From assembly GCA_036172245.1 (NCBI GenBank), contig JAYWIR010000040.1, positions 1,302,001-1,366,000 of the forward strand: a stretch of DNA of 64,000 bases, written 5' to 3'. The translations under genes and the position numbers were made by a program. The notes below the pieces were generated by a model. The model was not told the DNA's origin. It worked only from the letters and a program-made list of their open reading frames with translations, and searched no databases. Shown piece after piece: positions 27,270-62,922 of the stretch (position 1 is its first letter; each line of letters opens with the position of its first letter). Origin of the DNA: Raillietiella orientalis (taxonomy: Eukaryota).

Positions 27270-27765
27270 GTTGGCGGCCGCATGGCTGCGGTCTCCGCGT
27301 GCGTGGCGCCAAGTGTCGCGGGTTCGAATCCTCGCGCAGAGGACCGACGCCAGAGAAACGAGAGGGTGCGTCGTGGGTTTCGAGTCCCCCTCCCCCCCGC
27401 AAGATCTCGCTGGTTGGCCCACATTCGGGTGCGGCACCGGTAGAAACCGCTAAAAGCCGGCTGCCCTCGTTGACCCGCCAGGATTGGAAATCGACTCCCT
27501 GGAACCTAGGAATCAAGGAGCCGTTTCCTTTCGGTTGTAGAAATGGATCCTGTCCTCCCCTCCTTTTCCTCAGGAAGTGATCCTCCATCTTGTACCGTGG
27601 AGCTGGTGGATCGATATCTCTCCAGAGTGCGCGAAGAAGCGCTCTGTTCCCTTCGGGGAGCGATCCTCCGTAGGAATCAGGAAGCGTGCCTTGGGGGTTC
27701 TCTTCAGAGGAGTAAACAAGGAGCTGTTCCGTTGAGAGTTCCCTTCGGAGCTTCTTGTTCCTTCC
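27270..27765 (+). mobile_element. tRNA-derived SINE copy
   Basis: GGCCGCATGGCTGCGGTCTCC head, B box at 27321, shared body and tail. Confidence 0.75.
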
Positions 27766-38907: not shown

Positions 38908-40222
38908 GCATCTTCAATTACACTCTGCAGCGATGATTAAGAGAATGGACTTTTGTATTATTGATACCACACCGTTTTACTCCTAAAACCTATCTTTGAG
39001 TGAGTTTAACTTTCGAATCTCAGGGAATTTGCACACTCAGCAAAATGCAGCACGTAGAAAAGCCCAACAGGAACACGAGTGACGCGCTCTCCTTGATTTA
39101 ATTATCCCACTCTGCCGGGAAACCTGGGAATCTTACTCGTGTGCGAGTCCTGTACAACCTGTACAACCTGTAACAATGTTACATCCTGACGACAGCTTTA
39201 AAATCCTACGGGAGCCTTTTCTTTAGCAGCTCATACTGCCGTTCACGTTGGAACGAAAGAGACATTGCATGGTGTTGGCATTCGTGCAACTCTCTCGACA
39301 TATGCATTTCAACGAGGGTCTCGGTTTTCTGTTCTTCTTTCCTTTTTTTCTTTTCGTTCTCTCTCTTGTAGTTACTGTACAACTTAATGGTCGTCCCCAT
39401 TCCGATGATCTGCTCATCCGAAACTTGTAGAGCTACAAAGGAATGAAGCGTCTTCAGAGGCGAATTGGGCGCCTTCCCCTGAGCACTGATGGCACAAGTA
39501 GTACCTTCAAGCAGCGAGTGCAACGATGAGCCTTGTTGATCACTCTTTCGGATGCTTTTCTAAGAAGAGATTTTTCCCAAAGAATCTCATGCTCAAACCT
39601 TGTGCCTTCGGATGCTTTGGAGTATATCACATGTGATCTGATTCCAAATCATGTGATTCAGCTCCTTTTGGAGGCAAAACCGAGCGCGGGACTGCTGACC
39701 TCCAAGGTCTTGCCTTGCAAAAAGCTGCTGCGTGGATGTTGCTGTTTGTTTGAGGAAGCTCGAAGGCACTTGTGTGGACTGAGATCCAGAATTTTTTCGA
39801 ATCAGATTGTGCTGCATTCTCTGCATGTCTCATTATCTCTTTCGAGCACAGTGGAACGATCCTAGAGAAAATCAGCCTCCTCCCCCATCTGCAGATGCAG
39901 TAAAAAAAAAAAATATGCCTCAGTTCATTCCCCCGATATCGTTGTTTTCTACAAACACTCGGCATGCTGCTGCTAGCATTGAAGCACAGCGGAATATTCC
40001 AGGAAAGAGCACCTATCCTCAAACCGACTAGAGGAAGCGACTGATTGGTACTTGATGAAATTCCAGAGTTGGATTTTCAGGGACTGACTCTTCAGCTCTC
40101 TTTTGAAGAGAGAGAGGAACGTGAGCAGATTCGGCTCCTCTTTGGTGCATACCAACTCCTTACGAATGCAGATCAGCTTGTACATCTGGATCCCTGGAAG
40201 GAGAGCAGCGTGCTATGCTGAG

Positions 40223-40258
40223 AATCAAATCAAATCAAATTGATTTCAAACATTTATT
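40223..40258 (-). repeat. AATAAA plus (ATTTG)n tail, probable 3' end of a non-LTR retroelement
   Basis: The minus strand reads AATAAATGTTTGAAATCAATTTGATTTGATTTGATT. The element body is not recognisable. Confidence 0.35.
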
Positions 40259-43045
40259 GGTACTGAATATCGATTTGTGTACAAAAATGCTGTAATTAAG
40301 CATACATCTAAGAGATTTCTTCCACGAGATCGTTCGTATATCAAACATTTGGGCAGTGCTGAGTAATGTTGGTATCACATGAGATGATGACTGTTAGTTT
40401 TTTTGTTTTTTTGTTTTTTCTTCCTAATTGTGAATTTGGAGCTTTCCGATTTCAGGGAAGATGCATTGCTGAACTGCACGCATCAAAACTTTCATTCTTC
40501 CCTGTCAGCAGATTTGCAAAATTTCTGGTCCTGCTTCTTCTCTGCTTTCCTCGCTGGAGAGAGCAGATCGTTGCTTCCCTGATCCTCATTGCGTGGTACG
40601 CTGTTTCCTCGCAACGGAGCACGAATGCAATCCAATGGTCCATCTCAACAGATCACAGGTTACGATTCACAGTGTTGGAATCACCATGGACTTCAGAGCA
40701 AAGGAAAAACTACGGAATTTTAGGAATTTCGCCCATTGTGGGGGAAGAAGAGAGAGGGGGGGGGGGGCTATGTAGAAATTCAAGCGTTGACGATTCTCTG
40801 CAAGTTCATGCCTGCCCTGCGACCTACACCATCCCGCTCCTCTTCATGGAACCCAGTGCCACAACTGCAGAGATATTTGTGCAAATTGCTTCATCCACAT
40901 TACTTGGATTGCAGATTGCAAAGAAGCGTTCCTTCTCTATTGAATCCGTGGTTTCTATATTCTGGAGGAAAGTTATTCCTATTTGGTAGCTTGGTATGAG
41001 ACGTGAATTTTTTTTTCTACGAAAAAGAAAAAAATGGCAGAATTTAAAGAATCCTCTTGTTATAACGATCTCGGATTTATTTTAAGCTTCATCTGATTGA
41101 TGAATCGGGGTTTGTTCCACACATGCAGAACCCCATTATAATTATGCATTGACTGCATCGTGTATGTGCAAAAAGAAATATCGAAAAAAGAAAAAAAAAA
41201 AAAAAGGAATATCACCTGTTTAAATAGATCATCTATGTAATTTTTTTTTTTGTGTGTGTGTGTGTATGAAAAGAAATCAATATTGTCATTATGCAATGTT
41301 CAGCAGCTTAACATTGGTTTTCGTGCCTTCTGTTCGGAGTTTGAACACGATGAAAAAAATTGTGGCAATGCAACGAATGGAACACTGCTTAACACGTGAA
41401 CTAGAAAATTGGCTGAAAGAAAATTGAAGGAGCTCATTTGGCACAATAGGATTATCCGTAAGCAAATTTCCCATTGATTTACGGCGTTCATCGAATCCAG
41501 TATCCTTCTATTAAGTAATTTGCACAGCAAGAAGAAATGGTTTCGTTTTTCAACATTTAACTTCATACTTTGATTACTCGGACACTAAAAATCCGTATAT
41601 ATGAACTCTTTTATATGTGCAGTATTCAATGAAACGGTTCAAGATATTCTTCAAATTAATAAAACATGTTGGAAAATGAATTTTCCTTTAAAAAAAAAAA
41701 AACATTTAAAATCTTTTAAATTAAAATTCCCAGTATATCAATAATCCCATCACGACAGGATCATCTAAAAGCAGTGATGAATTCCAGTGTAAAATCTGGA
41801 AATGAGTTCATAAATAGAAAGAAAGAAATACTATTCAAATATAAAATACGTCTTCAGAGATCGATACGTGGAAAGCCTGCATGCTGATCAGTTTTTTTTT
41901 TTTTTTTTTTTTTTTCAGAATGTGATTTTAACACACAAAAGGGTGGTCTCGAATGGGCAAGCATGGAACACGCAGTGCTCAAACGAACAAAAAGCACAAA
42001 ATAAAAACAACTCCCAGCTTGCTGGTGTACGGCGCTTTCCTGGAAAAAAAAAAAACGAGCAGATTTGTAAAAAAGAATAGGTGGATGTCGGATAAGAATT
42101 ATTAATGATGCGGCAGCTTAAACGAAACCAAAAAGACGCCTACACAACAAAACATCCCAAATATTTTACATGCATAATCGACTGCACGTTGCACCTTGTC
42201 ATCCATCATATCGTTGCATTTTGTCATGTTATCATGCTGCATGCACATCACAACAGTAATGTACGAAATTTTCTCTGGATGCACAAATCCTGACAAATTA
42301 CAGTTGTAGGTTTGCTTTATGCACAGTATCTTTGCACGCAGGATACATTCTGACCCAACTGACATATTGAGAAGCAAAAACGAAAAACTTCTAAAACAGT
42401 GCAGTTTCTTTACCAGAGCAGGGAACTGCTCACATCAATAAAATAGGAATAAACAAATTAACTGATCTGCGTGTTTGAACCTTAAATTGACTCACTAATT
42501 ACTCTGTGTTGACAAAGAAAGAACCTTGGATTACTCGAGAACTTCTATAGGCTCTGTATATCATAATTCTGCAGAGATAAAGGAAACTGATTAACATAAT
42601 AAAAAACAATGTTGCATACAAATTTTAGGGCCTCGACTCGTTGCACTGCACTAGATAGCCAAGTGGAAGGATATCACTAAACAGAGTTAAGAATATTAGG
42701 CATATCTTTCTATTGTGCTTGTTCCTTTGTTTATTTTCTTTCTTGGCAGAACAGTTTTCGTTATTTGCCTTTCGGAGTGTTAGTTTTTCTCCTTCTTATC
42801 TGTTGTAACAGTCATTGAGATTTTTGTTAATTATTTTGTCAGCATCTCTGTGATGCCTTGCACCATGAGGTTGAGAGTGATCTGGTAGCCCCGCACGTGT
42901 GGAATTGACCGAACGCAGTGTGCAAAGGCTCTGTCAGTGCAGAGCAGAAGACCACGTAAAAGGAAAAAGGAGTCTGCTTCCCAGAAGCAACAAGAAACCA
43001 ATGGACCTCCTAGAATGTTAGATGTTTTGAAGTAAAACATAAAAC

Positions 43046-43646
43046 ATGCCTTCCAAGTCCAAACCCCGACATCCAAAAAAAAAGTGCGCAAATAGATTAA
43101 TGAAAATAAAGCATAGATCAAAGGATTTGGATGAGATCGACAAGGATTTGACGATCCAGGATGCAACCTCAAAGCTTCTTCATCAGGATTTAGATCTGGA
43201 TGTTGTTGGTGGAGCGCAGTTTCTTTGTGTACATTGTTGGTAAGGCTATTAAGATTCCCTATTATGGGATGACTTTCGTTATGGTGAAACTGAGTTCCTG
43301 CCTTGAGTTGCACCTTCTGTAATAATATGGACTGTCTTTATGTATGGGTGTGTGTGTGCATACATATATGTGTATATATAGGTAAAAGTGCATATATTTT
43401 CTTTCACATGTATTTGTGTGGGTTCCTTTTTATGTTTTTCTGTTTTCCAGTCGTTATTTCATTGATAACTCTTCATTAGAACGTCACTTTAAATCAAAAG
43501 TTCATAAACGTAGATTAAAACAGTTGGAAATTGAACCATATTCAGTGGAAGAATCCCAAAGGGCTGCTGGTATGGGATCGTACATCCCTCCTGCAAAAAG
43601 AGAAGTAAAAACATTAAGAAAGAGTGATGTATTAATGGAACTATAA
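43046..43646 (+). CDS. ZNF593: Zinc finger protein 593 / Bud20 homologue (60S ribosome biogenesis/export)
   Basis: Two exons, 43046-43239 and 43451-43646 (GT-AG, phase 2). They give KDLDEI...[19 protein letters not shown]...[34 protein letters not shown], the characteristic ZNF593 signature. Confidence 0.95.
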
Positions 43647-45347
43647 GTTGTGTTGCATGAAATAGATGCTTTTTAATATTAAGTGATTTTTGGGAATAGT
43701 TATGGGTATGAACTTTAAATATGCAAAAGCGTAATTCAGTGGAATGTGGTCACTCAGTTTTTTGTGTTTTTAATTGTGCTATAGCATGTACCCTGAATAT
43801 AAACAGGAATCATTGTATTCTCAAACAAGCAAAATGATAAAATACCTTCAAAACTCAGAAGTCACGTCTCTCAGCTTGAGGATCACACAAGTGCAATCAG
43901 GATTAGAATGATTGTATAAAGTTCATTGTGAATATCTCATCCTGTGAGTATTTAGTGTTTAGTGCATTAGATTTGGCTTTAAAACACATTTTGAATAGCA
44001 TCTTGCTAGTTAATTGCGGCACAATATTCTTTCAGCAAAGTATTAAATTGGTTCATAGCATAATCTGATAAATTATTGGGTAAATTAATCACTTTAGAAA
44101 GTATGGTAAGTGTTGATGAAAATAAAAACCCTGAAGCTGAGCAGATTTTGAATTCAAGCAGTTTTCACAAGAATGCACATCATGTTATGGGTTAATATCT
44201 GCATTTTCAAAATTAAGGAATCAGAAGCAAGTTCATATCACAAACTTCTGATGAATAACGTTTTTGGTATTTTTTAATACACTTTTTGAGTTTTATTTTC
44301 ATCATATGATGTAAAAAAATATGTCGCACAATGTATATTAATGTGACAATTAATGGTTGGGTCGATGTTCGTGATGCATGAACTTCTCATGTAGTAAAAG
44401 AATTTGTCTACCATTTACCATTCAGTAAATTAGAAATATTTCAGCCCATGAAAGTTGTAGGAGTATCTGTTGCATAGTTGATGAAACATGTTAAATTAGC
44501 TCAAAAAGTTTTCTAGTTTTCCTTTTTCTCTAAAGTTTGAAATATGAGTTTTGAAAACTAATCATGTAAATTTTTCTGATCGGGAGGCTCCTTGGATTCA
44601 TTCAAGACAGAATAGACAGTTCACAGTTTCCTGTTTAAAGTAAGGTTTTTTATTTCAAATACCGAACTCATTACAATGACATGAAAACATGAGCTCGTTT
44701 GCATTGTGAAGATTGAGAAGATGGAAATTTATTAATCGTACTCTCTTGAAACTCTGTACAGCATCATTTGCTCTTGAAAATAGGATTACTTTTCACTACT
44801 ATGAAACCTGTTGCAAAAATTGTAAATACAACAGAATTTATTGAAGTTGATTCAACTGTGGCTGCACAAATGCAGTACATAAATGGAGAATTTTGCAAGA
44901 ATTAGGAACCATTGGATACAACTTATTTTTCAGTGAGTTTCTGATAGCTTATTTTTTCAGTGATATAATTAAATACAAAAATAATAAATGGAATTCCTAA
45001 GAGTTTATCATAAACTTGAGGAGAAAAACAAAAAAGAAAATGGAAATTTAATTGCCTTTGAAAGAGATTGTTGAAAGATCTAACTTATCTTATTGTTGAA
45101 CCATTTTGTGAATTATTTGCTGCTTGTTTTCGACCATTTATACTTGATTGAGCAATGTTGTGTGCGGATTTGGTTGTAAGAAGCATAATTTTTAGTTTTA
45201 GCTCATTAAATATTAGGAATTGAAGAATAAGTACTTGAAGTGTAATAGCACATTTTTTGAGAATTAGTGTGATTGAAACTGTACTCTTTGCATAAATTTA
45301 TTCTATGCAAGTTTATTGGAATATAAAGACAATGATTTTAAGACTTG

Positions 45348-48300
45348 TTAATCAGTTTCGAAAGACGAATTTGGGGTGTAGAATATTTCCGTGTTGGTCT
45401 CACTGTCATTTCGTTCTAGAATTACAGCATAATAACGATTGGAAGTAATTATTAGCTTTGCTTCAGCATGTCTTAATTCTTCTTGCAATCTATCCATATT
45501 TGTTGCTTCCATACCAATTTCCTGGTAGTTGCTCTCTGATTCATCTACTAAGGACCTCAGTAAGTTTGCATATTTGCTGGGTATTCCCTTTCCAGCTGTG
45601 ATGCTAGACTGACATAAAGCAATGCTCTGGGTTTCATTAAATGAGCAATCTTTATTGTTTTTCGATTCCTCTAATATAGAAACATCCTGGTTGCTTTGCA
45701 TCTTCTTGTTTCGAAATTTAAAAGAATCAATTGGGTTCTTCGATCCCTTACCAAAAGCTGCATAATATACATACTTAACAGCATTTTGTACATCTTCATT
45801 CTGTTCTAAAAGCACACTATGAGCCAATATCAAGTCCACAGCTCTCAAATGGATGAATTCTTCTTGGCAAACGTCACTTGCTTCGACTGCATGGCCAATT
45901 AAGATCAAAATTCGAATGATAATCTGCAAGAACGAAAACAAATAAGGAAATATAAAGCAATAAGCCTTTCTACCTCTGGAGAAAGACTATTAGCCTCTAA
46001 AAATTTAAGACACAACCTGATCCCTGATGCTTTTGCAAACTGGTTACTATTGTCCTTGTGGCTGTCGATGCATACATCAATCAAATTGATGATCACTGGG
46101 CGGAGATTATGTGAGGTGTGGTTCTCAAAAATTGACAGAGCACACCTGGAAAGAAGTTGGTATATTTCAAGTTGGTTCAGTTTGGCTCGCACCTTATCAA
46201 TATGGGCATTCCTCCAAGCTTTCCCAGTATAGTCTGGTTTTGGTAATTGTGTGCAATTATTTGACTGAGGACGCCAATTATGTGAACTACAGTTTCTTCA
46301 TCTGTTGGAAAAGTTCTCAAAATATCCACACCGATGGGAATTATGTGTGCTTCAAAAAAATAAAATACAGAGCAACAATCCAGATTGAAACTTGGTGCAT
46401 ATATACTTCTGCATCCAAAGTGGATTGCAATAATGAATCATTACATAAGATCATTGTGTAGCATTGAATAAGAACGAACAAAATATTCTTTCTTGTATCA
46501 TTTTTTATTCGAATTGCCTTGAGTGTATCCGAATTTTGCACAAATCTCATGGAGGAGTATGTCTTATAGAGGAACTTGAAAGATCTTAAGGTTGAGCAAA
46601 CGCCACAAAGAAATTTACAGAGCAGTAATGGAAAAACGAAGTCAAATTCTTCAACTTTTTAGCGGTTGTGCGAATTAGATAGGAAAAATAGAGAGAAAAA
46701 TCGTGACTCCATATTAAAGAACTTAATGTTATTTAATGTAGTTTTTCATTGCATTTGAGGATTAAAGAGAAAAGACTGTTAAGCTGTTTGCTTCTCTTTG
46801 GGAAAATTTTCTACAGTCGGTCTTTTCTAGAAACTGTTTAATTAACTCGGTTTTTCCATGTAATTATCTACACACGAAACTGATGTAAAGTTTCCTGTTG
46901 CAAGTTGTGTCACTATACATTTACTTTTAAAATTTATGTATACCTTATTATTTCAATTAACATTAAACCTCATGCAAAAATCATTGCTAATAGCCTTCAA
47001 TGTAAAGCATAATTAAATCCTAAGTTTAATACATATATTTCTGTCATATTAGCATAAATAAAGAAGTTTTCCTTTTTGATGTAAACAAAATATTTTCTTT
47101 TGTTTACAATAGAGTGATTCAAAGAATTCTTTAGAAATCAGTTCTCTGATATAAATTTTCATATTGTATTCATAAGACATAAGCGAATACACAAAATTAT
47201 AATCTCGTTACTGAAAATAAATTCAGTAACAGATATTCATTGTTATTACTTGAAATAAATGAATAATCAATACTTATTGTGTGATTTTAAAGTTCATTTT
47301 GTCTTTATGCTGAGTTTGTATGCTTCGTAAAGGAAAATCAAATTCAAGATTTATTCCGCAAAATAATTCAGTGAATTACTTCTTCAATGTTTTGTTTATA
47401 GGGCTAAATATATGCCTAGACAATCGAGCAATTAGTATGTCATTTTATTATGCCCTACAGGTATGTAAAATGTAATAAGAGCGAATGGAAACTTCCGATA
47501 ATTCGTTTTCTACATTTCCTCATTAATGTCACTAAACGTTAGGAACGATTGCATCGTATCTTTGGGGGCTCATGTAAATGTTTTTTTAAAGAAAAAAAAA
47601 AATTTAACCACCTATGTTCTTAAACTTCAAGAATTTGTACTCTCATGCCACTAAAAGCATATTTTTTTTGTATTGTATTTCGCTTGCCATTAAGCAGATA
47701 GAATTTGAAGCTGTGATGCTCGTAATAAATTATTGTAGTTGACGTATTCGTGATTATGCGTTCGTTAGTTGGAAAAAAGAAGAAATAATTTTCAAAAGTA
47801 GCCCTTTACTGAGCTGGTGAGCTTGGATCTATAAACCAATGCAAGCAGCGTCTAAGTGAATCTTTTGAACTATAACTGTAACTGAAGGTATCACAGGTTA
47901 CACAAACTTGAGTTTATCCGAATCGAACCAGAGGACATGCATACCAGGAATGCATAATGCAAGGCATAAATACCGATAAGCGTTATGGACGAAATCAGGA
48001 TGAGAATTTCTAAACGTGTCTTGGAATCAGTTCGTTGGTCTGTAAGAGGCTCAAGGATGTGCCATCCTGACGAGTCAACAAGTGAACTTTCATCTTGAGG
48101 AGGAAAAAAATTTTTCATGGGGTATCCGGGTTAACTATGCATCCATGGATTGAGAGTGCTATTGGATCCCACGTAATCTGATGGGGGTGCTTTGGGTGCA
48201 TTTTGGGGTTTTGAATAGCATGTTATGAGCACATTATGAACTTGATAAAATCTATTTCATGGAATTTTTCATGAAATGGATCAGCATGACTGATACATAG

Positions 48301-50377
48301 GTGCCACTAATAAGAAAATTAGTTTTGAAAATTACTTTAGCTTGGCTGGTGAAGCTTCTGATAAGCTAAATGTTTTGCAGTCTGTGTTCTTCAGAATGCC
48401 ATGAAATCATGAAATCAAAGTGACATTGAAAGTTATTGTTCTGACATCTATTGTTTCAACGAAAAAAAATAGCTTATTATGGATGGATGAAATCCTTTTT
48501 ATCGGAACTAGCCGTATAGGTCTACGCAAGACAGGTCGTTTACTATGTGGGTTTTAAAGATAAAGAAAATTTCCGAATCGTTTTGTGGCAGGATGACATT
48601 TGCCGAGTACACGGAAAATGACAGTTAATTAATTCAAAATCGAGGAGTGCCATCATGAAATTCCGAAAATGCTCCACACATTGAAAATTTCTGCTCTGTA
48701 GTCATAGGATCCAAGTAGCGCGAAAGTACCTAAGACTCATCTGTGAAATGGAGGCGTTCCTTTCGAGATTGCAATAACGCCGATACAGTTCAATGAAAGT
48801 GATTCTTTCTATGCACCTGTATGTGTTTGGTGGATCAATATGAAGACTTTTGCACTATTCCTCTACAGTTAAAACTATTTATTAGCATCCTTTTTGCCCG
48901 TCATTTGGGAAATCATTTTCTCCCTATTTGCCTATTAATTCAACAATAAATGGAGATCTTGAAATTTGATTACGTTTGCGTCTTAAAACAAATTATGTGA
49001 GAAAGCGAAGCCGTGCTAAAGTTGCAATTCCTGAGAAATAATTACTGTGTTCCGAGTTCGATCACTTTTACGCAGTTATTTGGAGGGGGGGGGGGGAACC
49101 ATAACGGCGTTTGATTTCCGAGAAACAAAGGTAAGAGCAAAAGGCAAACACCGCACAATTCACATTTTCCGCCCTCGCCCCTTATTTCGTTGAATTTCTA
49201 AAGAACATCTTGCGTATTCAGGAAGCAAAAAAAAAAAATGCTTCAAAATTTCAATGGCTCCCAAAGCTTTTGGATCGTTGGCGTGATTTGTGGCTTGCAA
49301 ACTAAAATGCCCAAGTTGTATTGAAAATTTAGTTTGAGCACAATTTTGAAATGTACTCACTTCTTGTAAGAGTTGCCCCTACCACGCTAAAAGATAGGTG
49401 AGAGTTCCGTCACTTTTAAAACAAACCGTGAAGTTAAACAGCTGAATTATAATCTTCATTTTTATGCAGAAATTCTTCCTACTCCCTCATACGTATCTCA
49501 AATAGTAGTAGGGTATTTTAAACATTATAAGTGAAGTAACTTTTAATTTCAATCAGCATAAAAAAATGCGAAATACTCAGGTATGAAATCAGTTGGGACT
49601 CTTAGTGGCATTAAGAAATAATCGATGATCTGCACATAATTTAACATAAATATTTCCCCCCCAATTGCATATGCAATTTTCCTAAAGATAATTAATCTAC
49701 ACGGAAATCTTACCTGATAGCTTTTGATTTCTTTGATGATGTGGATTATTGGCACATGAGGAAATGGCTCCACATATCAAAACTAGTTGATAACATGGAC
49801 GAATGGCTAGTATCTCTTTCTAAAGCACAATCTATTGGTTTCGTGAACAGGTGATTGATTTACCTTCTTCGTAACTGATGTTTTCCTTATGCAGTAGGAA
49901 AACAGGCGTACGAGATCCGTTACACATCCAGATTCCGATGCATGGGTTTGATTCATTCCATTGTTAATGACGAGGACAGAAAAAAGATACAGAGATGCAT
50001 GCAGTAACTTCTTCTTTTCATAGTTTTTTAAATCTTTTAGTATTTTATGTAATATCTTAAACAGAATGGGTTTTCCAATATCCTGCTGATTGGCAATCTA
50101 TGAAAAATCTGTGAGCACTTTATTTTAAACGTTCATTACTTGCATTGCCTTCTACTGCACACCCTAAAGCAAAGAATCCCAGTTCTAAAATATTTCGCTT
50201 TATGCTCTGCGTTTTTAAAAACACATTGAAGATTTTCTGCTTCCCGTTAAGGATGCGAAACTGTTCCTTAAACACTTCGCTGGTGTTGAACAAGGAAGCC
50301 AGCGCTATGAGTTGATCCTTGGTCGAGAGGTCGGGTGGGCAACATATACTGTCCAGGATTTTTTGAAGGTCACCCAT
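45348..50377 (-). CDS. TERB1: TERB1 (CCDC79)-like armadillo-repeat protein, 492 aa, no visible C-terminal MYB domain
   Basis: Six phase-consistent exons: 50144-50377, 49864-50097, 49714-49819, 46193-46349, 45974-46145, 45348-45923 (1479 nt). Collinear by-eye matches to the remembered human TERB1 ARM region: SLYLFSVLVINNGMNQTHASESGCVTDLVRLF vs SVYVILVLVSNNRTGQTLVRETGCITVLSRLF; YQLVLICGAISSCANNPHHQRNQ vs YQLWSSVCSTLCVCVNNPQNDENQ; ILILIGHAVEASDVCQ vs IMLTLGHCTEDCEENQ; QNEDVQNAVKYV vs QNEELNKAATFV. AATAAA lies ~30 nt after the stop. Confidence 0.85.
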
Positions 50378-53300
50378 TTTCGCTTCTGCCTATCTGCAGA
50401 AAACAAATGAGTAAACGTCATACAGAAATTAGCAAGGGCATTTCGATGTGATTGATTTTGTTGTTGTTGTTGTTTTTGTAGCCCCAGGTTCGTCCGTGAT
50501 GTTGCGTTAAAACCGAGTGATTTCCTTAGCCATATTGCCGCTTGTAAAATACATATTCCTACACGGCACTACCAGCATTCGAGTAGCGAAGAGAAAGTTT
50601 TAAAGCACGAACTAGTTCAAAATTTCTTTCCATGAAAGACATTTGCAGAGAGCACGTTTTTTCTTGGTCTGTAATGTGTACAATTTTCATAGTGGAAACT
50701 TGCCGTACAGCAGATTAAATATTGCAGTTCTGTGAGAAGGGGTCTTGCTGAGCTCGACGTGGCTAATCACGAATCTGTAGGTTAACCGACAGCAACCTTA
50801 CCGAAAGTAATTGCTTCGAGCATCGGCTTTGCTTTCCGCATAAAGGATATTTACATCCTCAAAGTGGTTCCGGAATTTGGCTGCATTAGCGTCTCTTTCC
50901 TCAGTTCTTATTTCAGGAAATTTCCAATCATTCCGCTTTCAAAGTGAAATTTGATGGAGACTTTAGGATTTCGCTGAGTTAACGACATTTATAGGTTTTA
51001 CGAGGAAAAAAAAAAAAACTCCCCTAAACTCGAATAGGCAGCTTTCACTCGCATCCTCGACTGAGGCACCAACATGAGACTGTATGTGATGCTGATGCTG
51101 ATGCTCGATATGCTGATGTAAAACTGCATTTCCAAATTTGTTATGAAATGTTTTAATAACAAGCAGTGATGACGAGGGCACTAAGATATTCTGTACGAAA
51201 TTACTGTATTTTTCAAAGGTTAGCGTGGTCCTAGTCATTGCAATCGTCATCTGACATCGTTGCTTTTAGAGGGATGGAATATCATGCGAATTTCTTCCGT
51301 CAAAAGAATCTTACGGTTATTCCAATTCATAATACGCGCAAAGCAAAAGAATAAGTAATGGATGAATGGGTCACTATAGGAGCTTAGATGTAACTGCAAG
51401 CTTCTATAACAATTCCAAAACACACTTCAAAATCAGTGAATACTTCTCAGTAAAATATGAAAAAAATTCGGTTAGAAATTTATTAAGCTACCCCCGTATG
51501 TGAAGAAGAAGAAGAAAAATGAAAATATCTAAATTTTTCAAGAAAGGAATATTAGAGGTACTTCGAAGGGGGGAGGGGGGGGTGCAGACGCGCGCACATC
51601 GATTCCAGGAACCTCCAAAATGCGAGAGATCCAACTATGAATGTAATTGACTTCCACTGATTCCATTACAGCAGCAGCCTTTCAGTTCTACTCTATTTTA
51701 TTCTGAAATCACTTTGAACAGGTTGTTTGTTTCAAGATACGTATTCAAAGGATGCCAATGTAGTCTTCAGAAGAAACTCAAATCACAAATCTACAAATTC
51801 AAATTGTGGACCGATCCAACTTGGTATTAAAGGCTAAATAAACAGATGATGATGCGACCTTGATCTTGGTGTCTAGCACTTCCGTGTCATCGACTGTGCA
51901 CCGTCACCGAGCAAAGCCACGGAGGTCGCGAATACGTCGAGTTCACGGCAGCTCTTTGACTGGAAGCTTACCAAACCGAACAAGACTTTACTGCAAAAAT
52001 GGGTCAGGGATTTCCCATTCAGAAGGTTTTTTATTTTTAATGTTTTCTCGATGAAACACTCATGTCTTGAAACCCACCGATGGAAACCTTTGGCCCCTTC
52101 GGATTTGGAAAATAGATGTTCGTTACTTGGAAAGTATGCCATATTCCATGAACAAATCTGATATTCTCCAGAGATCACTTGGTATTCATTCGGTGGATGA
52201 TGTCGTTATGCTTTCATCTGGAAATACGACACTGGTTTCATGATACTGTCATATTGCTCGTTGCTTAAATTCAGCGGTCGTATTTAGAATGTCACCTCAT
52301 TTTCTTCACCAAAATTTTCTCAGCTTCACTTGCATAACGTGCATATCCCATCACCTTTTCAATGTATATTCTTCTGCTGGCAGTGTAGTAGATGTAGCAT
52401 TTTGTTTTCATTAGTGATAAGCCACAGTGTGTTTTCATGAAATACGTGTTTGAATACAATTGCTTGTAACGAGGTTCAAAAATTAAATGTTTTTAGATTG
52501 CTAAGAATTAGCAAAGATAGAGACAGAAATAGAGACATCAATTATTCATCACAGTTGACAGTTTTTATTCACATGCTGTTAAGCTTATGTTGTTCCGCCA
52601 TTTTTAAATTTTTAAATGGTCACATCTAGAACCCACTGAATGATTCGCTGGTAATATTTCACATTTCTAAGGATTTTTGGCTTTCCACACATTTTCCTTA
52701 TCCGTGGAGAACCAGAAACTTCAGAGCAATGCAAATTACTACATCATTTCGTCAGTCTACTCCAAACTCGACTACATCAATTTTGAAGATCGGGTTTCGG
52801 AAGCCCAGTGAAGAGTCGCACTAATCCAAATCAGATTTCTTCAGAATCTTGATATGCGCGATAGTAATTATTTTTCAGATTCGTACCCATATCATAATTA
52901 ATAATCTGCAGCCATTGTCTCTAAGTAAGGCTGTTTTGTGAAGTCTTATTAACATGCCTAGCAAAATAGGCTACACGAATCTGCAAAATGCATAGAATTG
53001 AAAAATTTGGAGATTGATCATTATAACGCAACTCAGGTCGCTGCATCTAATCTATTTAAGAGATAAATCATTTTCTTTTATGTGAAGTAGAAAATATTCT
53101 TAACGGCAACAAATCTGACGAAAAGTCCATTTTCGCCTTTTTACTGGTGGCTTACCACACTTATCTGTTCGAATGATGAATCACAAGTTCTTCATTCCTA
53201 AATTTCGGAATGCTACCATCATCTTTCAATCATTGCATTCCAGACTCTTCCGTTCACGTTTTACAATCTTTGTATTTTCTGTATCCCTTTGGTAGAGCAG

Positions 53301-56029
53301 TTCGAAAGTAGTGCCATCATGTACTTATCTGAAATTTCTTCATTCGAACGAATTCTGAGATCCAGAATGTTCTTTCATGTGCCAATTATTTCCGGGGACG
53401 ATGTATGCAATGGATAATGGAAGACGTGAGATCTCTTTTGCACTAATCTTTTTCGTTGCTTTCAAGATTTCAAAATAATGGCACGAAGCTCAGTTCGCTG
53501 AGCTTTGCATCCCTTCTGATGGGTTCCGAAATCAATGGTGAAGAGTAATAAGAGCACATTCCTTTTCCTATTATTATACCCCCATGGATACTACAAAAGT
53601 TGATCGCTCTCTGATGTTTAGTCAAAACAGCAAATTCCTCAACATGAGCCATTAAACTTGAGATCGTAGTTCCGAAACAAGTGGATGTGCAGAACTTTGC
53701 CAAATATAAGTATACGAGAAAATAACTTGGGCACTAGGTTTCACTTGAATGGAATCAAGTAAAAATAAAGCTACATTGAACGTAAATTAATTTATGAAGC
53801 TCTCGTGAAAAAAATAAACATTCAAGAGTTAAAAATCACGTCTTATTAAATGCGTTGAAAAAATTGTACTATGACTTCACAAATCAAAATACTTCATTCA
53901 TTACAATGCACAAAGCGTTCGATAACGAACTTAAATGTAAATCTCGTCTCTGATTCGTATCAGTGATTTAAAATCACACTCATCATTGAATAACATTGGA
54001 AGCAGCACCTGCAATTTCAGGGTGTCAACTTGCAAAGGTTTTCGTCACGAAACAGTAAGCAGCAGTTTAAAAATTACTCAAACTGCTGTTTGCTGCGTGT
54101 TTTCCTATTACTTCATTCGAAGATAACAACTAAACGCATCCGCGAACACAATAAAACATGAGGAATACGCGCACACAAAACGTAGGTATTTGCAAAAAAA
54201 ACATTCCTCATCTACATGTAATTATTTTTTTTTTCATCGGCGTAAGGAATGCGAACTTGTAAAAGAAAAACTCACAATGCAGTTACTGTTCAGCTATTAA
54301 GACATCATCATGCAATTACCCATCTTTGCTTAAACAACATATAATAGAAACTCAATAATAATATTCCCAGTTCTAGTCTTTTCTTACATGAACATTTCTT
54401 TGAAAGCACAGTACTGTTCAGAAATCAGGTTGAATTCAGAACAATTTTCCTCAACCTTCAGGTTCACTTATGTACTTGAAAATTATTTCTGTATTTCTAT
54501 GAACACACGCACCACGATAGTGCCCAATGGTTTCCTAATTCTTTTGAAATCCTTTCCACAGATAAATTCGACAGATCGTAGGCCTCAGTGCTGCTAGGTT
54601 GTGATTATCATCACAACTATCATAAATAGAGACATCATAAATGCAAATAAAATATTCAGTTATCAAACCAAAAGCTCGCATTGAATTTTCTAATGTTATA
54701 ACTTTCGAGAGTTTTCTCAATATATCACTCTCGGTAAGATTTATCATGCATTGATACTTTTTTAAAGGAAAGAATGCTCTAAAAACACATTTAAATTTCA
54801 TGCATGCTTCAAAAGTTTATCAGGATGTTTCTTGGGATATATTAATTTAGACTAAACAGTATCTAAATCTATGGAATCCTAGAAATTTACTCGATAATTT
54901 TTACCAAACTATTGAATTTTTCAAGATGGAATGTATTCAATGCTCAGGTTACATTTAGTTGATTAAGAATTGCAACATTAATTTGTGTCTTTAATAGGTA
55001 TTATTTACCTACAGTTTCTGATATCAGATCGTCATTTACCTGATTTTTCGTTTTTGAAACTTTTTAACAATGATAATTTCAATTAAAACATATTTCTATC
55101 CAGAGTACGGAGTACTTACTCGTTTGAAAACTTTCTAACCCCACTCATCGATAGGATATGTTTGCAGCAAATTTATTTCTTTGAAATTAGAGGTGATGAG
55201 TCTCCAGTTGCTAATTCTTAGGGAGACAGTCTAAAAGAGATTAGGGAGGTATTCTTCGGAAGACACTAATTAGTGTTAATGTCTAAATCGCTTGCTATTT
55301 CGAATGCTGAAAAAACAGATTTCCTGAACTGTACAACAGAACGTAAGGTGTTTTATCATACCGATTAGTGAGGATGGAGCAAACGGATTGATATTCCATA
55401 TTTTCCACTCATTTTTTTTTTTATTTTTTGTGCGTCATTTCAGTCGCCAAGCCAGTTTTATCTTGTCTTAGGTATAAGCGTTCATTAGCTAAATAAATTT
55501 AATATAGGGAGTGCTCTTGACGAATTATTGAAATAAGCATTTATGCAATATTCTGCTATTGGTTTTAATAGTTTCAAAGAATATCAGGTTCTATCTTTAT
55601 GTAAAGTATTATTTCTCGGCTACTTCTCAAATCTTTTATTCTAAATTTCCGATATGCATCTGATATCCTGAAATCAGAAAACACATATATGGCAACTGGA
55701 TTTCAATTTCAATACGAAAAAATTATTTGAAGAAAGAAAAGTTTCTTGTTTTCTTCGTCATTCTTTAGTGTTTCAGATGCCATGATAAAAATTTCTTTCA
55801 CTTCTTACTTTGAGTAGAGATACATAAGAATTCTTTCTTTCCATCTCGAAAACATCGATAATGTTTTTGTTAAACTCACCGAGCAAACACATAATCCTCA
55901 AAATACTAGCACTTTTGCACAAACCATAAGGTTTCCCCACATTGATAGCCAGGTCCCATGGTTGTTTGCTTTCTTGATCTTGTTAATTAAAAAGTTTGAG
56001 ATTATCCTTGCTTACAGAAAGGATAATAT

Positions 56030-56140
56030 GAAAACTTTTTCCTTACAGAAAGATATCCCGTGCAATGAATGGAATACCTTATCAAGGAGACTGGACTCCA
56101 TTATCGATATTTGGAGAGATTGTTAACATGTTACAAATTA
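56030..56140 (+). pseudogene. Possible DNA-transposase C-terminal remnant (Chapaev/CMC-like)
   Basis: Frameshifted QKDI...ME...YQGDWTP resembles the FHQDI..ME.RYQG.W transposase motif. The match is short and degenerate. Confidence 0.25.
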
Positions 56141-58227
56141 CAGTTTGCAATTTGAAATTCGTAGATTTGGATGTAAACATGTGCTAAATGAAGAATCATA
56201 CTGATCCAGAGTTCAGGACAAACAATCTGATATATTTTGTTTTCTTTGACAACGAAGACCGAAGAACAAGCACTTGCTTCCAATTAGTAATCAGTGTACT
56301 AGTATTTAAGCATAGTGATTATATTGTGCCATGTAAAAACATGAAACTATTTGACTTCCATGTACGAGGAGAAGATGCATACAAGGTAAGATTTTAATAT
56401 CCTACGATCGTGGTGAGTTTGATCAAGTTCACCATTGAAATCTAGAAGATGAGAAATCTTATGATACAGCACCATTGTCTGTACGTAAGGTACAGATCAG
56501 CACATGGAGATGGTTTATAGCTCATACTCAAAAAAAAGATACTTGCAGTGAATTTCCAATTCATATGAATTATACACTAAAATTATTTTGTGAGGAAACG
56601 GGAGACAAATTATTTAATGCAGGCAATAGAATTGCAATTCATAGGAAACCTAATCATTCATGTATCTGAGTACAACCTGCAATGTTTGAAATGTCATTGA
56701 AAAGGAAATTGAGATACTGTTCTAATATTGACTTAATAGTTAAAAAGCAACTCGGATTTTGAGGCCATTATTTCCGGTTTAAGAGCTTATAAAAAAGAAA
56801 AAAACCTCACTCGGAAAACCAACGAACAATTGCTGATGGACCAACGAAACCAAACTGTGAATCAAGTTCAACTGTCAATGTTATGGGCTGGTGAGATCTC
56901 TTTTTTCAAGAGGGTATTTCAAAAATAATTGTCTGATAGAGTGGATATGATATTCAGCACGAAGAGAAATTATGGTGTTAAAAATAATTCATGGATGTCG
57001 AATGTTAGGGAGATTAACAGCAGGAAGAAGTAAAGGGGTAGAGGAAAATGTTGAAGATGATTTTGAATTGATTGATATTTAGGGAGAATTAGAGAGTTTC
57101 AAAATCTCCCGTGTGAGTACTCTACGTAGATGTTTATGTAAGTGTTGATCTCTAAAAGTATTTTTGGATTTGGTTTAATGAATTTCTTATCACACTAACA
57201 GGCAGGGCATGAATACTACTCATATTCAATGTATTATTTCTAAAAAGTATAGGAGATAGACAATGTCTGACTTTTCAACTGATTTTTTGGAAAAAGTTTT
57301 CTAATTCATTGTTCAGCCGATCAAATCAGCATTTTAAATTCCTTTCAATTTATGAGGCCATATAGATTTTATGAAACATGCTTAAATTATGTATGCAAAA
57401 CGAACTGTTTGAGTGCATTTTTGTAGAGTATAGATTAGGGGTATTTGTATAGATTGTACTTCGACGAATATTTAGAATATTTTAAATCTTTTAGATGGAT
57501 TAATGTTGGAAACCTCGAGTTTCACAACGTGCATAAAAGGCAGTATATATACTTTTTAATGCATTATTGTCACCAAGCAGTTAGTTGTGCTTAAAACAGC
57601 ATTGCATATATTTTTTGTGTAAAATAAAACTCCCAAATCAGCATTTTGGGAGAACATTTATGGCAATATGGTAACACGAATGTGGTTGATCCGCATCGCT
57701 TGTAAGTAAACGTGGTCTACTGATTGAAAACTACTCGATACAATGGAATAGAAAATGTAAGAGCTGTTGCTGGTTATACAAGTGTTCAAAAATGTAGAGA
57801 CTAGCTGTTTGCAATTACCGGCAGCTGGAGCAACGCATTTTAGAATTTCAGTTTTGCTAACGTTTGTGGCGTTTTCAGTTCAATGTTGCGGTTTAAAAGT
57901 CTTTGCAGCATAAGGCTGCTCTTCTTTTTTTAACAACTAAGACTTCTGATTTGAACATTATTTTGTTCTATTGGGAATCAATTTGATACAGCAGATATAA
58001 AACCAGTTTGTACAAGTGTGCGTCTAACGTTAGTGAGAAGCCTTGATTACTAGACAGTTTTGTTGTGATTTCATGTCAATACGTGTGCATGAAATAATTT
58101 TATAGCCGTTCGTAGCATACGCAGAAGCATGGATGAAAGATGAATTTTCTTTTAGATCAGTATTTTGTCACGATTTATTTTTAGAAGTGAAATATGGTTG
58201 CCTCTAATAATCGCAATAGTAGAAATC

Positions 58228-61200
58228 ATGATAGACATGAATAATGGAGCAGAAGATAAGAAAAAACATTCCAAATCTGGAGCAAATTTCATTTGTGGTG
58301 TAGTAGAAGGTCTGTATATTACCCCTTATTTGTGCGACTAAGTCGAAAACATTTGTTTTAGGATTTTATGGTCAGCCTTGGACTGCAGAACAGCGAAAAG
58401 AACTCTTTAAAATGTAAAATATTTTTTTTCTGTATTGATTTAATAAAAACTATAGAAAAAATTAGTTAGCAACTTAATAAGCAATTTGATGATTAATCAG
58501 AGGTTGTACATCTATTGTGATGTAGTTCAAATCTCTAAATAATTGATAATTCCGTAATCCTTGCTTGTTATGGGAAAATTGTGTAAAGTACTAAGACTTT
58601 GTAAAGTTTCCTGTCTGAAATTGGAGAGTATGTATTTGTGCATGTCTTATAACATGAATCTAATTGTGTTCTATCAACTGTAACTGTAATTAGAATGAGG
58701 TTAATGAATTATGGAATTATGTTATTGTGTTTCCTATATTGCAATTATAGATGATGCATGATATCATTGTGTGGTGAGTTGAAGTGAATAATATTCTTGG
58801 TTGTGGAAACTGCAAATAACTTTTGGTGAATGTAGCAACAACATGAAAAACATCAAGTACACTTGTTGGAAATTGCATTTGAAATTGTGCATGTGAATGA
58901 AAATGAAGCTGAATGCGATGCACTAATTATGGTGCACTGGCTTGTTATAAGGCACATACCAAGGACTTGTTGCTGATTGCAAAAACAGTTGTTAGTATTT
59001 GGAGATTGAACATTTAAACATGGAAATTATGTTTACACTAGACTGCTGTAAGCATAAAAAATCTTCTAATCTTAGCTCTCCTTTTTCTGTCAAATTTGAA
59101 ATATTTGATGCTATTAAGTGGAGTTGCTGATTTGCAAAATCATATGTATTATGAAGAACTACTTCTGAATAAAGGAATCTTGCAGCAGCATTACAAAAAA
59201 ATCAAATGTCTGAATGAATCATCGTTCATTTACACTGCTCTGTTTTAATGTTATCAGTGGTGTGTATTGATTTATGACATTGAGTTTGTTGAATGCTCGC
59301 ATAATTGAAGTAATTGAAAACTATTTCAAAGCGGATCTGTCATCAGCTTACTATTTGTCGAGCCTCAAATGATGATCTGTTGTTATAATGTTGATGAAAT
59401 GTTAGGTCTCTCTGGAGCAAAAGATTTTCTCTGAGATTGGATGAGGGGGCATGAATTTGTAGATCTCTTGCTGAGAAAAAATTCTTGCCATGTTTTCTTT
59501 CACCAATTTGAAAAGGAAAAGTTCTAATTTCCTTTAGAAAACACTATTCACAGGAAAAGTACAAAGTCAAAAATATAATATCTCATTGTTTTGCTAATTT
59601 GAAGTGATGTTTAAAGTTTTAATGGAGGATCAGTTCTCATCTTTGTTACAGATACATGTGACTATAAAGTTCTTTATGTCATACTGTCGAGTATCAAAAG
59701 ATATTCAAAGAAAATTGTGTTTTGTTCTGTTAAATATTCTAAAAAAGCTGTTTTGGCAGGTTAGGAAAATGGGGCATGAATTCCTATTTGTATGCTCCCA
59801 AAGATGATTGCAAGCATAGAGCTTTCTGGAGAGAAGCTTATAGTGTGGAAGAAGGAGAGCATTTAGCTAACTTAATCAGTGCAGCAAAAGAACAGAACAT
59901 TACATTTTATTATGCAATTTCACCTGGTTTAGATATTGTGTACTCGTCTACCAAAGATGTAAATTGTCTGAAACGCAAATTGGATCAGGTGAGCATTAAT
60001 CTGAATGTTTCTTCTGTTTTATGAGTATATGCTTCCAGGTTGCACAGTTGGGATGTCAGGCATTTGCATTGTTGTTTGATGACATTATCCCTGAAATGAA
60101 TGAGGCAGATAAAGAAGTCTTTCAGTCATTTGCTCATGCTCATGTGTCTATTACTAATGATATTTTTGAGCATCTCAACCAACCAGCATTTTTGTTTTGT
60201 CCCACACAGTATTGTGGCTCTTTTGCAATACCAAATGTAGCCAATTCAGAATATTTGCAGACTCTGGGATCTAAACTAGCTCCTGGTGTTGATATCATTT
60301 GGACAGGTGAGGTGTCATCTGAAAATTAATTCTTACAGTTGAGCTTAGGACCCAGAATTATTTCCAAAGTTATACGTTTGGAAAGTGTTCAAGAATTAAC
60401 AGAGGTACTGCGTCGACCTCCTGTCATTTGGGATAACTTGCATGCCAATGATTATGACCAGAAGCGCCTTTTTCTTGGTCCTTATTGTGGTCGTTCACCT
60501 CAGCTTATTCCTCATTTAAGAGGTGTTCTTACTAATCCAAACTGCAGATTTGAAGCCAACTTTGTTGGTATTCATACATTAGCTCAGTGGGGTTCATGCA
60601 GTACTGATGTGCCTTCATTCCCAAGTATGTAGGATGTTGCTACTTTTCTTACACTCTTCTGCTCACTAGTGAGACCTGCATTGTGGTCTGTCTCCAGATT
60701 GCACAGTAAATGCGGACATCAGGTTGGAAGTGGAAGGTGACAATGGTGAGGGTGAACCCAATTCTCTTCCTCCCGATGTTTATCATCCCAGACGTGCCCT
60801 TCGACTAGCCATTAATGAATGGATGATGGAATTTTACAAATTGAAAGAAAATCCAATGGTGGCAGAATCTCAGGTCAGCATTCAAAATATCATTAGAATA
60901 ATAGGTTCATCTTGTGATTTGTAGACTGCAAAGGAGAGTAGTTGTGGAATGTTAGGGAATGCTATTCCTCCTCTGGCATTAGCAAATGCTCCAAATGAGG
61001 TAAGGTTATATGTCAAGAATATGCTGTATTTGGCAGTATGATAAGTTGCAGTTACTTACAGCTGCTTCTTCCATTTTCACTTCTACGCCTATCATGAATT
61101 CACTCATTGCAGAAGATAAGATTGTGATTTCTAGTCAGCAGGCAGATGATTTGTCTTCTGCCTGTCTCCCCAAAGGTGTAGAACCAATGGACTGCCATCC

Positions 61201-62922
61201 TACAGCTAAAAAAGATGAAGAGAGGAAGAGCTGTATGCAGGAAGAAGACTCACATATGTTAACAGAATCATTGCCTGATAAAGAAAAATTGCCTTATGCT
61301 GCTGTAAAAGATTCTCCAGCAAATAGTCCTCAGGCTCCCAAGAACCATATGGATTTAGAAGGTGACCATGTAGATCAAGAGGAGCATATGGATAAGCAGG
61401 CAGTACAAGAACCTGTTCAGGCATCTATGATTGTGGACAACGGAAATGGACCATCATCTGTTGATCAGCTGGTGGTAGAAGATGTGACGTTGCTCACTGA
61501 ACTGTTTTGTCTACCCCATGAATATGGACCTCAAGGATTGCTGTTATTACATGAGTTCAATTGGCTAAAAGTAAACGCATTTGTTCTCCAGGAACATCAG
61601 AATAGAGAAGAAAGCTTACCTGAGGTCAGTGTTTGTGAGAACAGTAACTTAATTAAGAAATGCCAGGTGGAGGAATGGTGGCAGAGAGCAGAATCTTTGT
61701 TTGCTCTATCAAAGTCCTTGACTGTTTTGTTTCAACGCTTGCTGCATATTCCAAATCACTGTCTACTTTATGATCTTTACCCTTATGTATGGGATCTGCA
61801 TGGAGTTTTATCTATTGCATGTGCTTACATCCAATGGCTGGGTAAGTACATGTAGTCTCCCATTATGGTCTTCATGTCTTTATGTAGGCAAGTGCCATAA
61901 GCTGACCAAGGACAATGTGACTTATGTCACTGGCCATCGCACCTGTATGTTGAGTTGGGAATGAAACACTGGCGAGTGCTTACGTTTGTTTCAGGGTCAT
62001 CAAAAAGTTGGAAAGATTCCTTTACGTCTGGGGATCAGGAACCTTGGGTGTTCATAGGTGGACTCACTGGGGAACTGCAGGTTTGCCATTTTGCAGGGTG
62101 TTTTCTATTAAGAACGATTTTCTGTAGCGGCTTCTACCCATCGATTCGTCCAATGACTTATTTGTTTACAAAACCCCAGAGCGTCCTTTGACGAAATTAT
62201 ATTCAGTGCGTGCTTATGAACCTTCAGACCTCACAGCTTTATATTCCATTTGTAAAATAGCATCTCCTAATGATCATTTAGAGTCTGTGCATAATGATCT
62301 GCATCCTGATAAGTAAGGGTTGCTAATGGTGGCTCCAGTGAAAATTGTTTTTAGATTGCTTGGTGGTTTTTTATGCCTTTGCCCTGAGGGCTGTTTTGTT
62401 GTAGCAGAAGAAGGTACAGGGGAACTTATGGGTTACTGTATTGCAGCTACACCCATCAAAACTTTTTATGATCAGCTGAGGTCAGTCTGGAAGCCACAGC
62501 TACTGGGAAAGTATTCGAGCTTAGAGAATGCTGGTGATGTAAGTATGGAAGCAGTACCACAGTATGGCCCTTTATGGGTTTTTAGGAATTGAGCAGCATC
62601 CTCCAAGGTGATATCCTCGAACCTCCATGTTCTGTTACTACTCAGTATACATCTGAATTACAGTTGGCCATGTTGCCAACTATCTCTGATGCATCATGGA
62701 CCAAGCGTTTGTTGACATGCACACTAGCAGCATTACGTACTCAGGGTTTGTTTTCCCTTATGTAGAGTCATCATCAAAGTTGTAATTGTAGGATCATTTG
62801 GTGCTTATGTCAAATGTTCCACCAGTGATGCAGCATACATTGAATTCTACAATAAGCTGGGATTTTTGGAGATTAGTCCAGCTGTAACTCCAGGAACTGC
62901 ATATTTAGGAAGAACGTTTTAG
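58228..62922 (+). CDS. OGA: O-GlcNAcase (GH84 catalytic domain, stalk, C-terminal HAT-like domain)
   Basis: 15 phase-consistent GT-AG exons: 58228-58309, 58362-58413, 59760-59988, 60039-60306, 60349-60624, 60698-60873, 60925-60999, 61052(or 61037)-61624, 61667-61841, 61888-61944, 61995-62080, 62128-62312, 62355-62538, 62586-62745, 62792-62922. Motifs: [19 protein letters not shown], catalytic [43 protein letters not shown], terminal LGRTF. AATAAA at 62935 and 62995. Confidence 0.97.

Follow-up and report, generated by a model that had tools for sequence, protein, structure and literature searches.

In a 64,000-nucleotide (nt) stretch of Raillietiella orientalis DNA (GenBank assembly GCA_036172245.1, contig JAYWIR010000040.1, positions 1,302,001 to 1,366,000 of the forward strand; hereafter the window), we found a six-exon gene on the minus strand, at window positions 45348..50377, which probably encodes an intact armadillo (ARM)-repeat protein of about 488 amino acids (aa). 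It has the appearance of a real gene in an animal genome with compact introns, and we estimate the probability of this reading at about 0.75. The same region had previously been described, in a reading made from the sequence alone, as a TERB1-like gene without the C-terminal MYB domain. TERB1 (CCDC79) is the meiotic adaptor that connects telomeres with the nuclear envelope, where its ARM domain binds SUN1. As it stands, the gene is an unannotated-looking ARM-repeat gene without detectable relatives at the level of single exons, which is useful for annotation and is not surprising.

The gene model was built by enumerating possible donors (GT) and acceptors (AG) near the open frames of the minus strand. 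The open chain starts with an ATG at 50377 and ends with a TAA stop at 45350-45348, and an in-frame TAG is located at 50392-50390, 15 nt upstream of the ATG. Four open models were enumerated, with lengths of 471, 488, 500 and 502 aa, and the best splice sites gave the 488 aa protein; the 492 aa of the sequence-only reading was not among them. No frameshift or internal stop was observed across the 488 codons. Exon 1 (50156..50377) consists of 74 codons and ends at the donor GCA/GTAGAA; no other donor gave an open frame into exon 2. Exon 2 (49864..50097) consists of 78 codons with ARM-type Atlas features, and exon 3 (49714..49819), defined by splice-site enumeration, is 106 nt long and ends in phase 1 at the donor CAG/GTAAGA. 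Exon 4 (46193..46349, 157 nt) carries the clearest ARM repeat, as judged by phmmer searches of the PDB, and exon 5 (45974..46145, 172 nt, donor GAG/GTAGAA) matches a designed helical-repeat protein in the PDB. Exon 6 (45348..45923), with 191 codons and the TAA, encodes the last ARM-like helices followed by a tail, which is rich in Ser, Asn and Glu, contains one short helix-like stretch and ends with ...EIFYTPNSSFETD. The five introns are all of the GT..AG type, with lengths of 58, 44, 3364, 47 and 50 nt. Two AATAAA signals were found downstream of the stop (45297..45317, minus strand), at distances of 30 and 45 nt. Both the six-exon chain and the stop followed by AATAAA, which had been proposed earlier, were recovered, with the chain apparently intact and its introns canonical.

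The homology searches were run exon by exon, and the sensitivity was reduced since the exons (35-191 aa) cut through the repeats. The strongest ARM signal among the exons was obtained for exon 2, with an Atlas language-model score of 0.97, 184 of 256 features shared with the Arm (PF00514), ARMC9_ARM and KAP clusters, and a recognition value of 2754, which is above the 2300 mark of the tool. In the PDB, exon 4 matched 28 distinct sequences at E<=10, comprising three of ARMC4/ODAD2, 22 of beta-catenin and three designed helical repeats. The exon aligned to single repeats of ARMC4/ODAD2 and beta-catenin, including the ...GG.P.L... turn of these canonical ARM proteins. Exon 5 matched a designed helical-repeat protein with an E value of 1.7e-4. 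The best Atlas score of exon 6 was 0.89, and its ten best family-carrying matches all fell into one ARM/HEAT-like set. When residues 1-360 were compared with themselves at 120 lags, the top three lags were 42, 46 and 47 aa, with modest z values of 2.9, 2.5 and 2.5, respectively, and a repeat period of 42-47 aa is another feature shared with canonical ARM proteins. The helix pattern of the repeats was assigned by eye. The exon 2 score, the exon 4 matches and this self-similarity support the ARM scaffold that the sequence-only reading had put forward.

Based on these features, an armadillo-type alpha-solenoid is predicted for residues 1 to about 355, with about eight repeats that are each 42-47 aa long. 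The remaining residues, about 130, would make up a polar tail with one short helical stretch. By analogy with other ARM solenoids, the protein may be a non-enzymatic adaptor whose superhelical groove accommodates a partner peptide in extended form, and the tail may serve as a second, short contact site. The gene is presumably expressed.

The 3' half of the chain is longer than expected by chance. Exon 6 is located inside a 212-aa open frame. When 40001-59000 was shuffled 200 times, the longest frame had a mean of 114 aa and a maximum of 190 aa. The longest open chain with no more than two GT..AG introns, each of 40-60 nt, was calculated by dynamic programming and compared with that of 100 dinucleotide shuffles. 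The chain of exons 4, 5 and 6 is 1001 nt long, compared with a mean of 577 nt in the shuffles (standard deviation 71, maximum 764), and none of the 100 shuffles reached 1001 nt.

Several results weigh against a single intact ARM-repeat gene. The chain of exons 1 to 3 (593 nt) is close to the shuffle mean and not longer than chance, and therefore the case for the 5' half is made by its likeness to ARM repeats and by the way exon 3 fits onto exon 4. Intron 1 has a non-consensus donor, GTAGAA, and the identical hexamer is used at intron 5. Codon-usage log-odds trained on the neighbour gene did not separate the exons from background open reading frames (ORFs), with exons 1 and 4 scoring no better than the latter, in a test that had no power. 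The best E values of exon 4 were weak, 0.008 for ARMC4/ODAD2 and 0.04-0.2 for beta-catenin, and none of the six exon translations matched Arm (PF00514) or a related model in Pfam even at E<=10, the rows returned for the six exons (E 0.021-0.25) being junk. The prediction of exon 6 alone by AlphaFold2 had a predicted local distance difference test score of 41.5 and was unusable. In word-index searches against longer proteins, exon 6 gave 876 candidates with none at E<=0.01 and exon 2 gave 28 candidates with none at E<=1, while a comparison of exon 6 with proteins similar to it in length gave 105 candidates with none at E<=0.1. An exhaustive HMMER search of 1.84 billion proteins with exon 1 gave no match at E<=0.001. 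Finally, intron 3 (46350..49713) is about 60 times as long as the local norm.

These results bear on an alternative that we consider improbable, namely that the chain does not represent a single functional gene. Under this alternative, it might be a pseudogene in decay, a pair of separate ARM-coding units flanking a 3.4-kb gap, or a chain whose 5' half consists of ORFs joined by chance. The ordinary length of the 5' chain, the very long intron 3, the lack of detected relatives and the absence of signal in the codon test fit this alternative. Against it, the 488 codons are free of frameshifts and internal stops, and the strongest ARM signal of all exons lies in exon 2. In addition, the exon 3 donor CAG/GTAAGA is strong, the phase fits across intron 3, and the regular repeat of about 45 aa, as read by eye, is carried on over the exon 3/4 junction. 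We favor one intact gene in which exons 3 and 4 are probably joined across the 3.4-kb intron.

The length of intron 3 was considered separately. The best-fitting introns of the beta-N-acetylglucosaminidase (NAGidase) domain gene in the same window are 50 and 42 nt long, so that very short introns (42-58 nt locally) are the norm, from which the 3364-nt intron departs. An intron of this length suggests that the two halves may be separate genes or that a further exon was missed. None of the 22 ORFs of at least 45 aa on both strands of the intron reached the Pfam cut-off, and no terminal repeats were found when they were sought there. A 105-aa open frame just upstream of exon 4 could supply an extra exon at 46445..46654 on the minus strand (acceptor AAAAAG/, donor TAT/GTAATG), which has 69-70 codons, is phase-compatible with exons 3 and 4 and would extend the protein to 558 aa. 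This candidate exon had no match in the PDB, and the 42-47 aa periodicity was weaker once it was included. Hence, the six-exon model was kept, and the candidate exon is probably not used.

The family to which this ARM-repeat gene belongs is less clear than its fold. One reading, to which we give a considerable chance although less than an even one, is that the gene belongs to another or a lineage-specific ARM-repeat family that has nothing to do with telomeres. The named similarities are all generic to ARM/HEAT proteins (ARMC4, beta-catenin, ARMC9, KAP3, ZER1, inscuteable, CFAP69 and Ric8), and no TERB1-specific feature was found. By their Atlas features, exons 2 and 6 group with the clusters of ARMC9, KAP3, ZER1, the inscuteable C-terminal domain and CFAP69, but the Pfam models of these families match no exon even at E<=10, so the likeness is at the level of the fold class. 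The resemblance to beta-catenin and ARMC4/ODAD2 comes from one exon that does not reach the Pfam Arm model, and the length and tail of the protein differ from both. Another point against this reading is that a well-conserved ARM family would probably have surfaced in the exhaustive HMMER search with exon 1, and none did.

TERB1 is, tentatively, the best single named candidate for the family. The reading of the gene as a TERB1 orthologue of this animal without MYB, which we regard as possible but less likely than not, is a refinement of the ARM-repeat gene and does not exclude it. In this case, SUN1 at the inner nuclear membrane would be the partner of the ARM domain, a diverged TERB2-binding segment (T2B) would be located in the tail, and the protein would tie telomeres to the LINC complex during meiotic prophase. 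The evidence that points to TERB1 by name is one Atlas row for exon 6, the cluster 'TERB1 protein (Fragment)' with 445 members from Chordata, which was ranked 13 of the 30 rows with a score of 0.87. This cluster shares 143 of 256 features with exon 6, and no row of the table shown shares more. In Atlas, however, a score below 0.9 with fewer than 170 shared features is treated as a lead only, and the recognition value of exon 6, 2092, is below the mark of 2300. Among the Atlas rows shown for exon 2, there was no TERB1. The PDB is reported (PMC7227075) to contain fragments of TERB1 that bind TERB2 (T2B) and TRF1. None of the seven exon-wise PDB searches returned a TERB1-named chain, and when every PDB chain was searched with exon 6 at E<=10, the two matches were unrelated and no TERB1 chain appeared. 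The sequence-only reading thus stood in part: the apparently intact gene, the ARM fold and the missing MYB were supported, whereas the identification as TERB1 was not, and the per-exon searches found no relative.

The architecture of the protein allows a comparison with published TERB1 sequences. The ARM domain covers about 355 aa from the N-terminus, compared with residues 16-384 of mouse TERB1 according to passages of da Cruz et al. (2020, PMC7227075), and in both proteins an ARM domain of about 355-370 aa begins at the N-terminus and is followed by a non-ARM tail, an arrangement generic to many families. As in candidates from six animal clades described in those passages, MYB is lacking. 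On the other hand, the protein has about 488 aa, whereas about 730 aa was given for vertebrate TERB1 in the sequence-only reading, and it has no recognisable T2B, no IxLxP motif and no MYB. The lack of a recognisable T2B, for which Pfam as searched here has no model, counts against TERB1, as the segment is kept in almost all TERB1 sequences in the same source (PMC7227075, passages). The missing IxLxP weighs little, since this motif is conserved mostly in vertebrates according to that source (PMC7227075). The passages also report fast-evolving arthropod TERB1 alongside the candidates without MYB, and such fast evolution would account for the empty per-exon searches.

The absence of MYB was examined within the gene and downstream of it. 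In Pfam, none of the six exons matched a MYB family, and no other recognisable DNA-binding domain was found in them. Twenty minus-strand ORFs were enumerated at 45337-43492. Eighteen of these (at least 25 aa, at 43644-45337) showed no MYB, and the two under the last exon of the neighbouring gene were covered, cut at 43644, by a scan of 43644-38000, in which none of the 57 minus-strand ORFs of at least 30 aa matched MYB either. In total, no MYB was found in 75 ORFs over 7.3 kb downstream, although a MYB divided among small exons could escape such an ORF-wise Pfam search. Together with the stop, the AATAAA signals and a convergent neighbour that ends at a distance of 1.7 kb, these results support a gene without MYB, in agreement with the proposed lack of the MYB tail.

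It had also been suggested that EIFYTP near the C-terminus could be a relocated motif for docking to the TRFH domain. The pattern [F/Y/I]xLxP, the class of the TRF1-binding IxLxP motif, is absent from the 488 aa. The sequence IFYTP at residues 477-481 has Tyr where Leu is required. It conforms to no more than the loose pattern [FYI]x[LIVMFY]xP, which by chance should occur 0.8 times in a protein of this composition, and the suggestion is weakened accordingly. A more elaborate form of the TERB1 reading is that the gene is a fast-evolving orthologue, in an animal with introns of 42-58 nt, that has shed the whole half containing the TRF1-binding region and MYB and has gained a new C-terminal docking peptide (ETNTEIFYT...). 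We consider this very doubtful. If it were true, another subunit would recognise the meiotic telomeres, and the animal would offer a natural test case for the rebuilding of the bouquet complex.

A match to the C-terminus was found in a metagenome scan with exon 6, which gave 83 pattern matches and one locus (L001). The locus matches residues 160-191 of exon 6 only, with 52% identity and an E value of 2e-5 that is relative to the candidates only. Between positions 770-868 of the locus and 45351-45446 of the window, nine consecutive residues, ETNTEIFYT, are shared, and 13 of 18 positions are identical. The match is located inside a 780-aa open frame that shows no further likeness, and the DNA sequences agree over about 30 nt only. 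It is probably a chance match driven by the seed, with a shared short linear motif as a minor alternative.

In passages of da Cruz et al. (2020, PMC7227075), TERB1, TERB2 and MAJIN are found across Metazoa, and candidates for TERB1 that apparently lack MYB are listed for Anthozoa, Arthropoda, Priapulida, Cephalopoda, Hemichordata and Cephalochordata. The novelty that the sequence-only reading attached to such a protein was thus overstated. Whether these candidates reflect annotation errors or true loss of MYB was left 'to be verified' in that source (PMC7227075). If the present gene were shown to be TERB1, the candidates of da Cruz et al. would be joined by a further lineage, and its clean end, with the stop, the AATAAA signals and the convergent neighbour 1.7 kb off, would argue for true domain loss over annotation error. 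It would also bear on the dispensability of MYB, as suggested by work on mouse Terb1 delta-MYB, in which, according to passages of Zhang et al. (2022, PMC8867601), neither telomere localisation nor fertility requires MYB. Among the papers listed for TERB1 in connection with asexuality, none was directly relevant.

The gene lies in the A+T-rich part of the window. The G+C content is 50-66% from position 1 to about 38500 and 30-40% in 38500-64000, with a sharp change between the two parts. In the G+C-rich part, the observed/expected ratio of CpG is 0.83-1.03, and none of nine long ORFs tested there had a Pfam family. This part could be a repeat-rich isochore or the result of an assembly join. 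Interspersed repeats were observed in it, including an inverted pair of about 445 nt with 92-93% identity (2784-3225 and 13606-14048), and a pair of 48-nt repeats with a tRNA-like GGTTCGAATCC box is located at 3372-3419 and 27311-27358. Scans of the window with Rfam and for tRNAs and tandem repeats found nothing notable or relevant.

In the A+T-rich part, CpG is depleted over the gene bodies, with an observed/expected ratio of 0.37 over the NAGidase gene. The latter is a multi-exon gene at 59743-62600 on the plus strand with a NAGidase domain (PF07555, E values down to 7.8e-26), which we take to be O-GlcNAcase-like. The convergent neighbour of the ARM-repeat gene is a C2H2 'jaz'-type zinc-finger gene, of which the last exon at 43386-43646 on the plus strand scores 22.3 bits against a cut-off of 22.6; the gene presumably resembles ZNF593/Bud20. 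An open chain that measures 770 nt when as many as two short introns are allowed was observed on the plus strand at about 40200-40990, around a 208-aa ORF at 40363-40989 that matches no Pfam family. Its length slightly exceeds the maximum of 100 shuffles, 764 nt, and the chain may be another unrecognised gene or the remnant of a mobile element.

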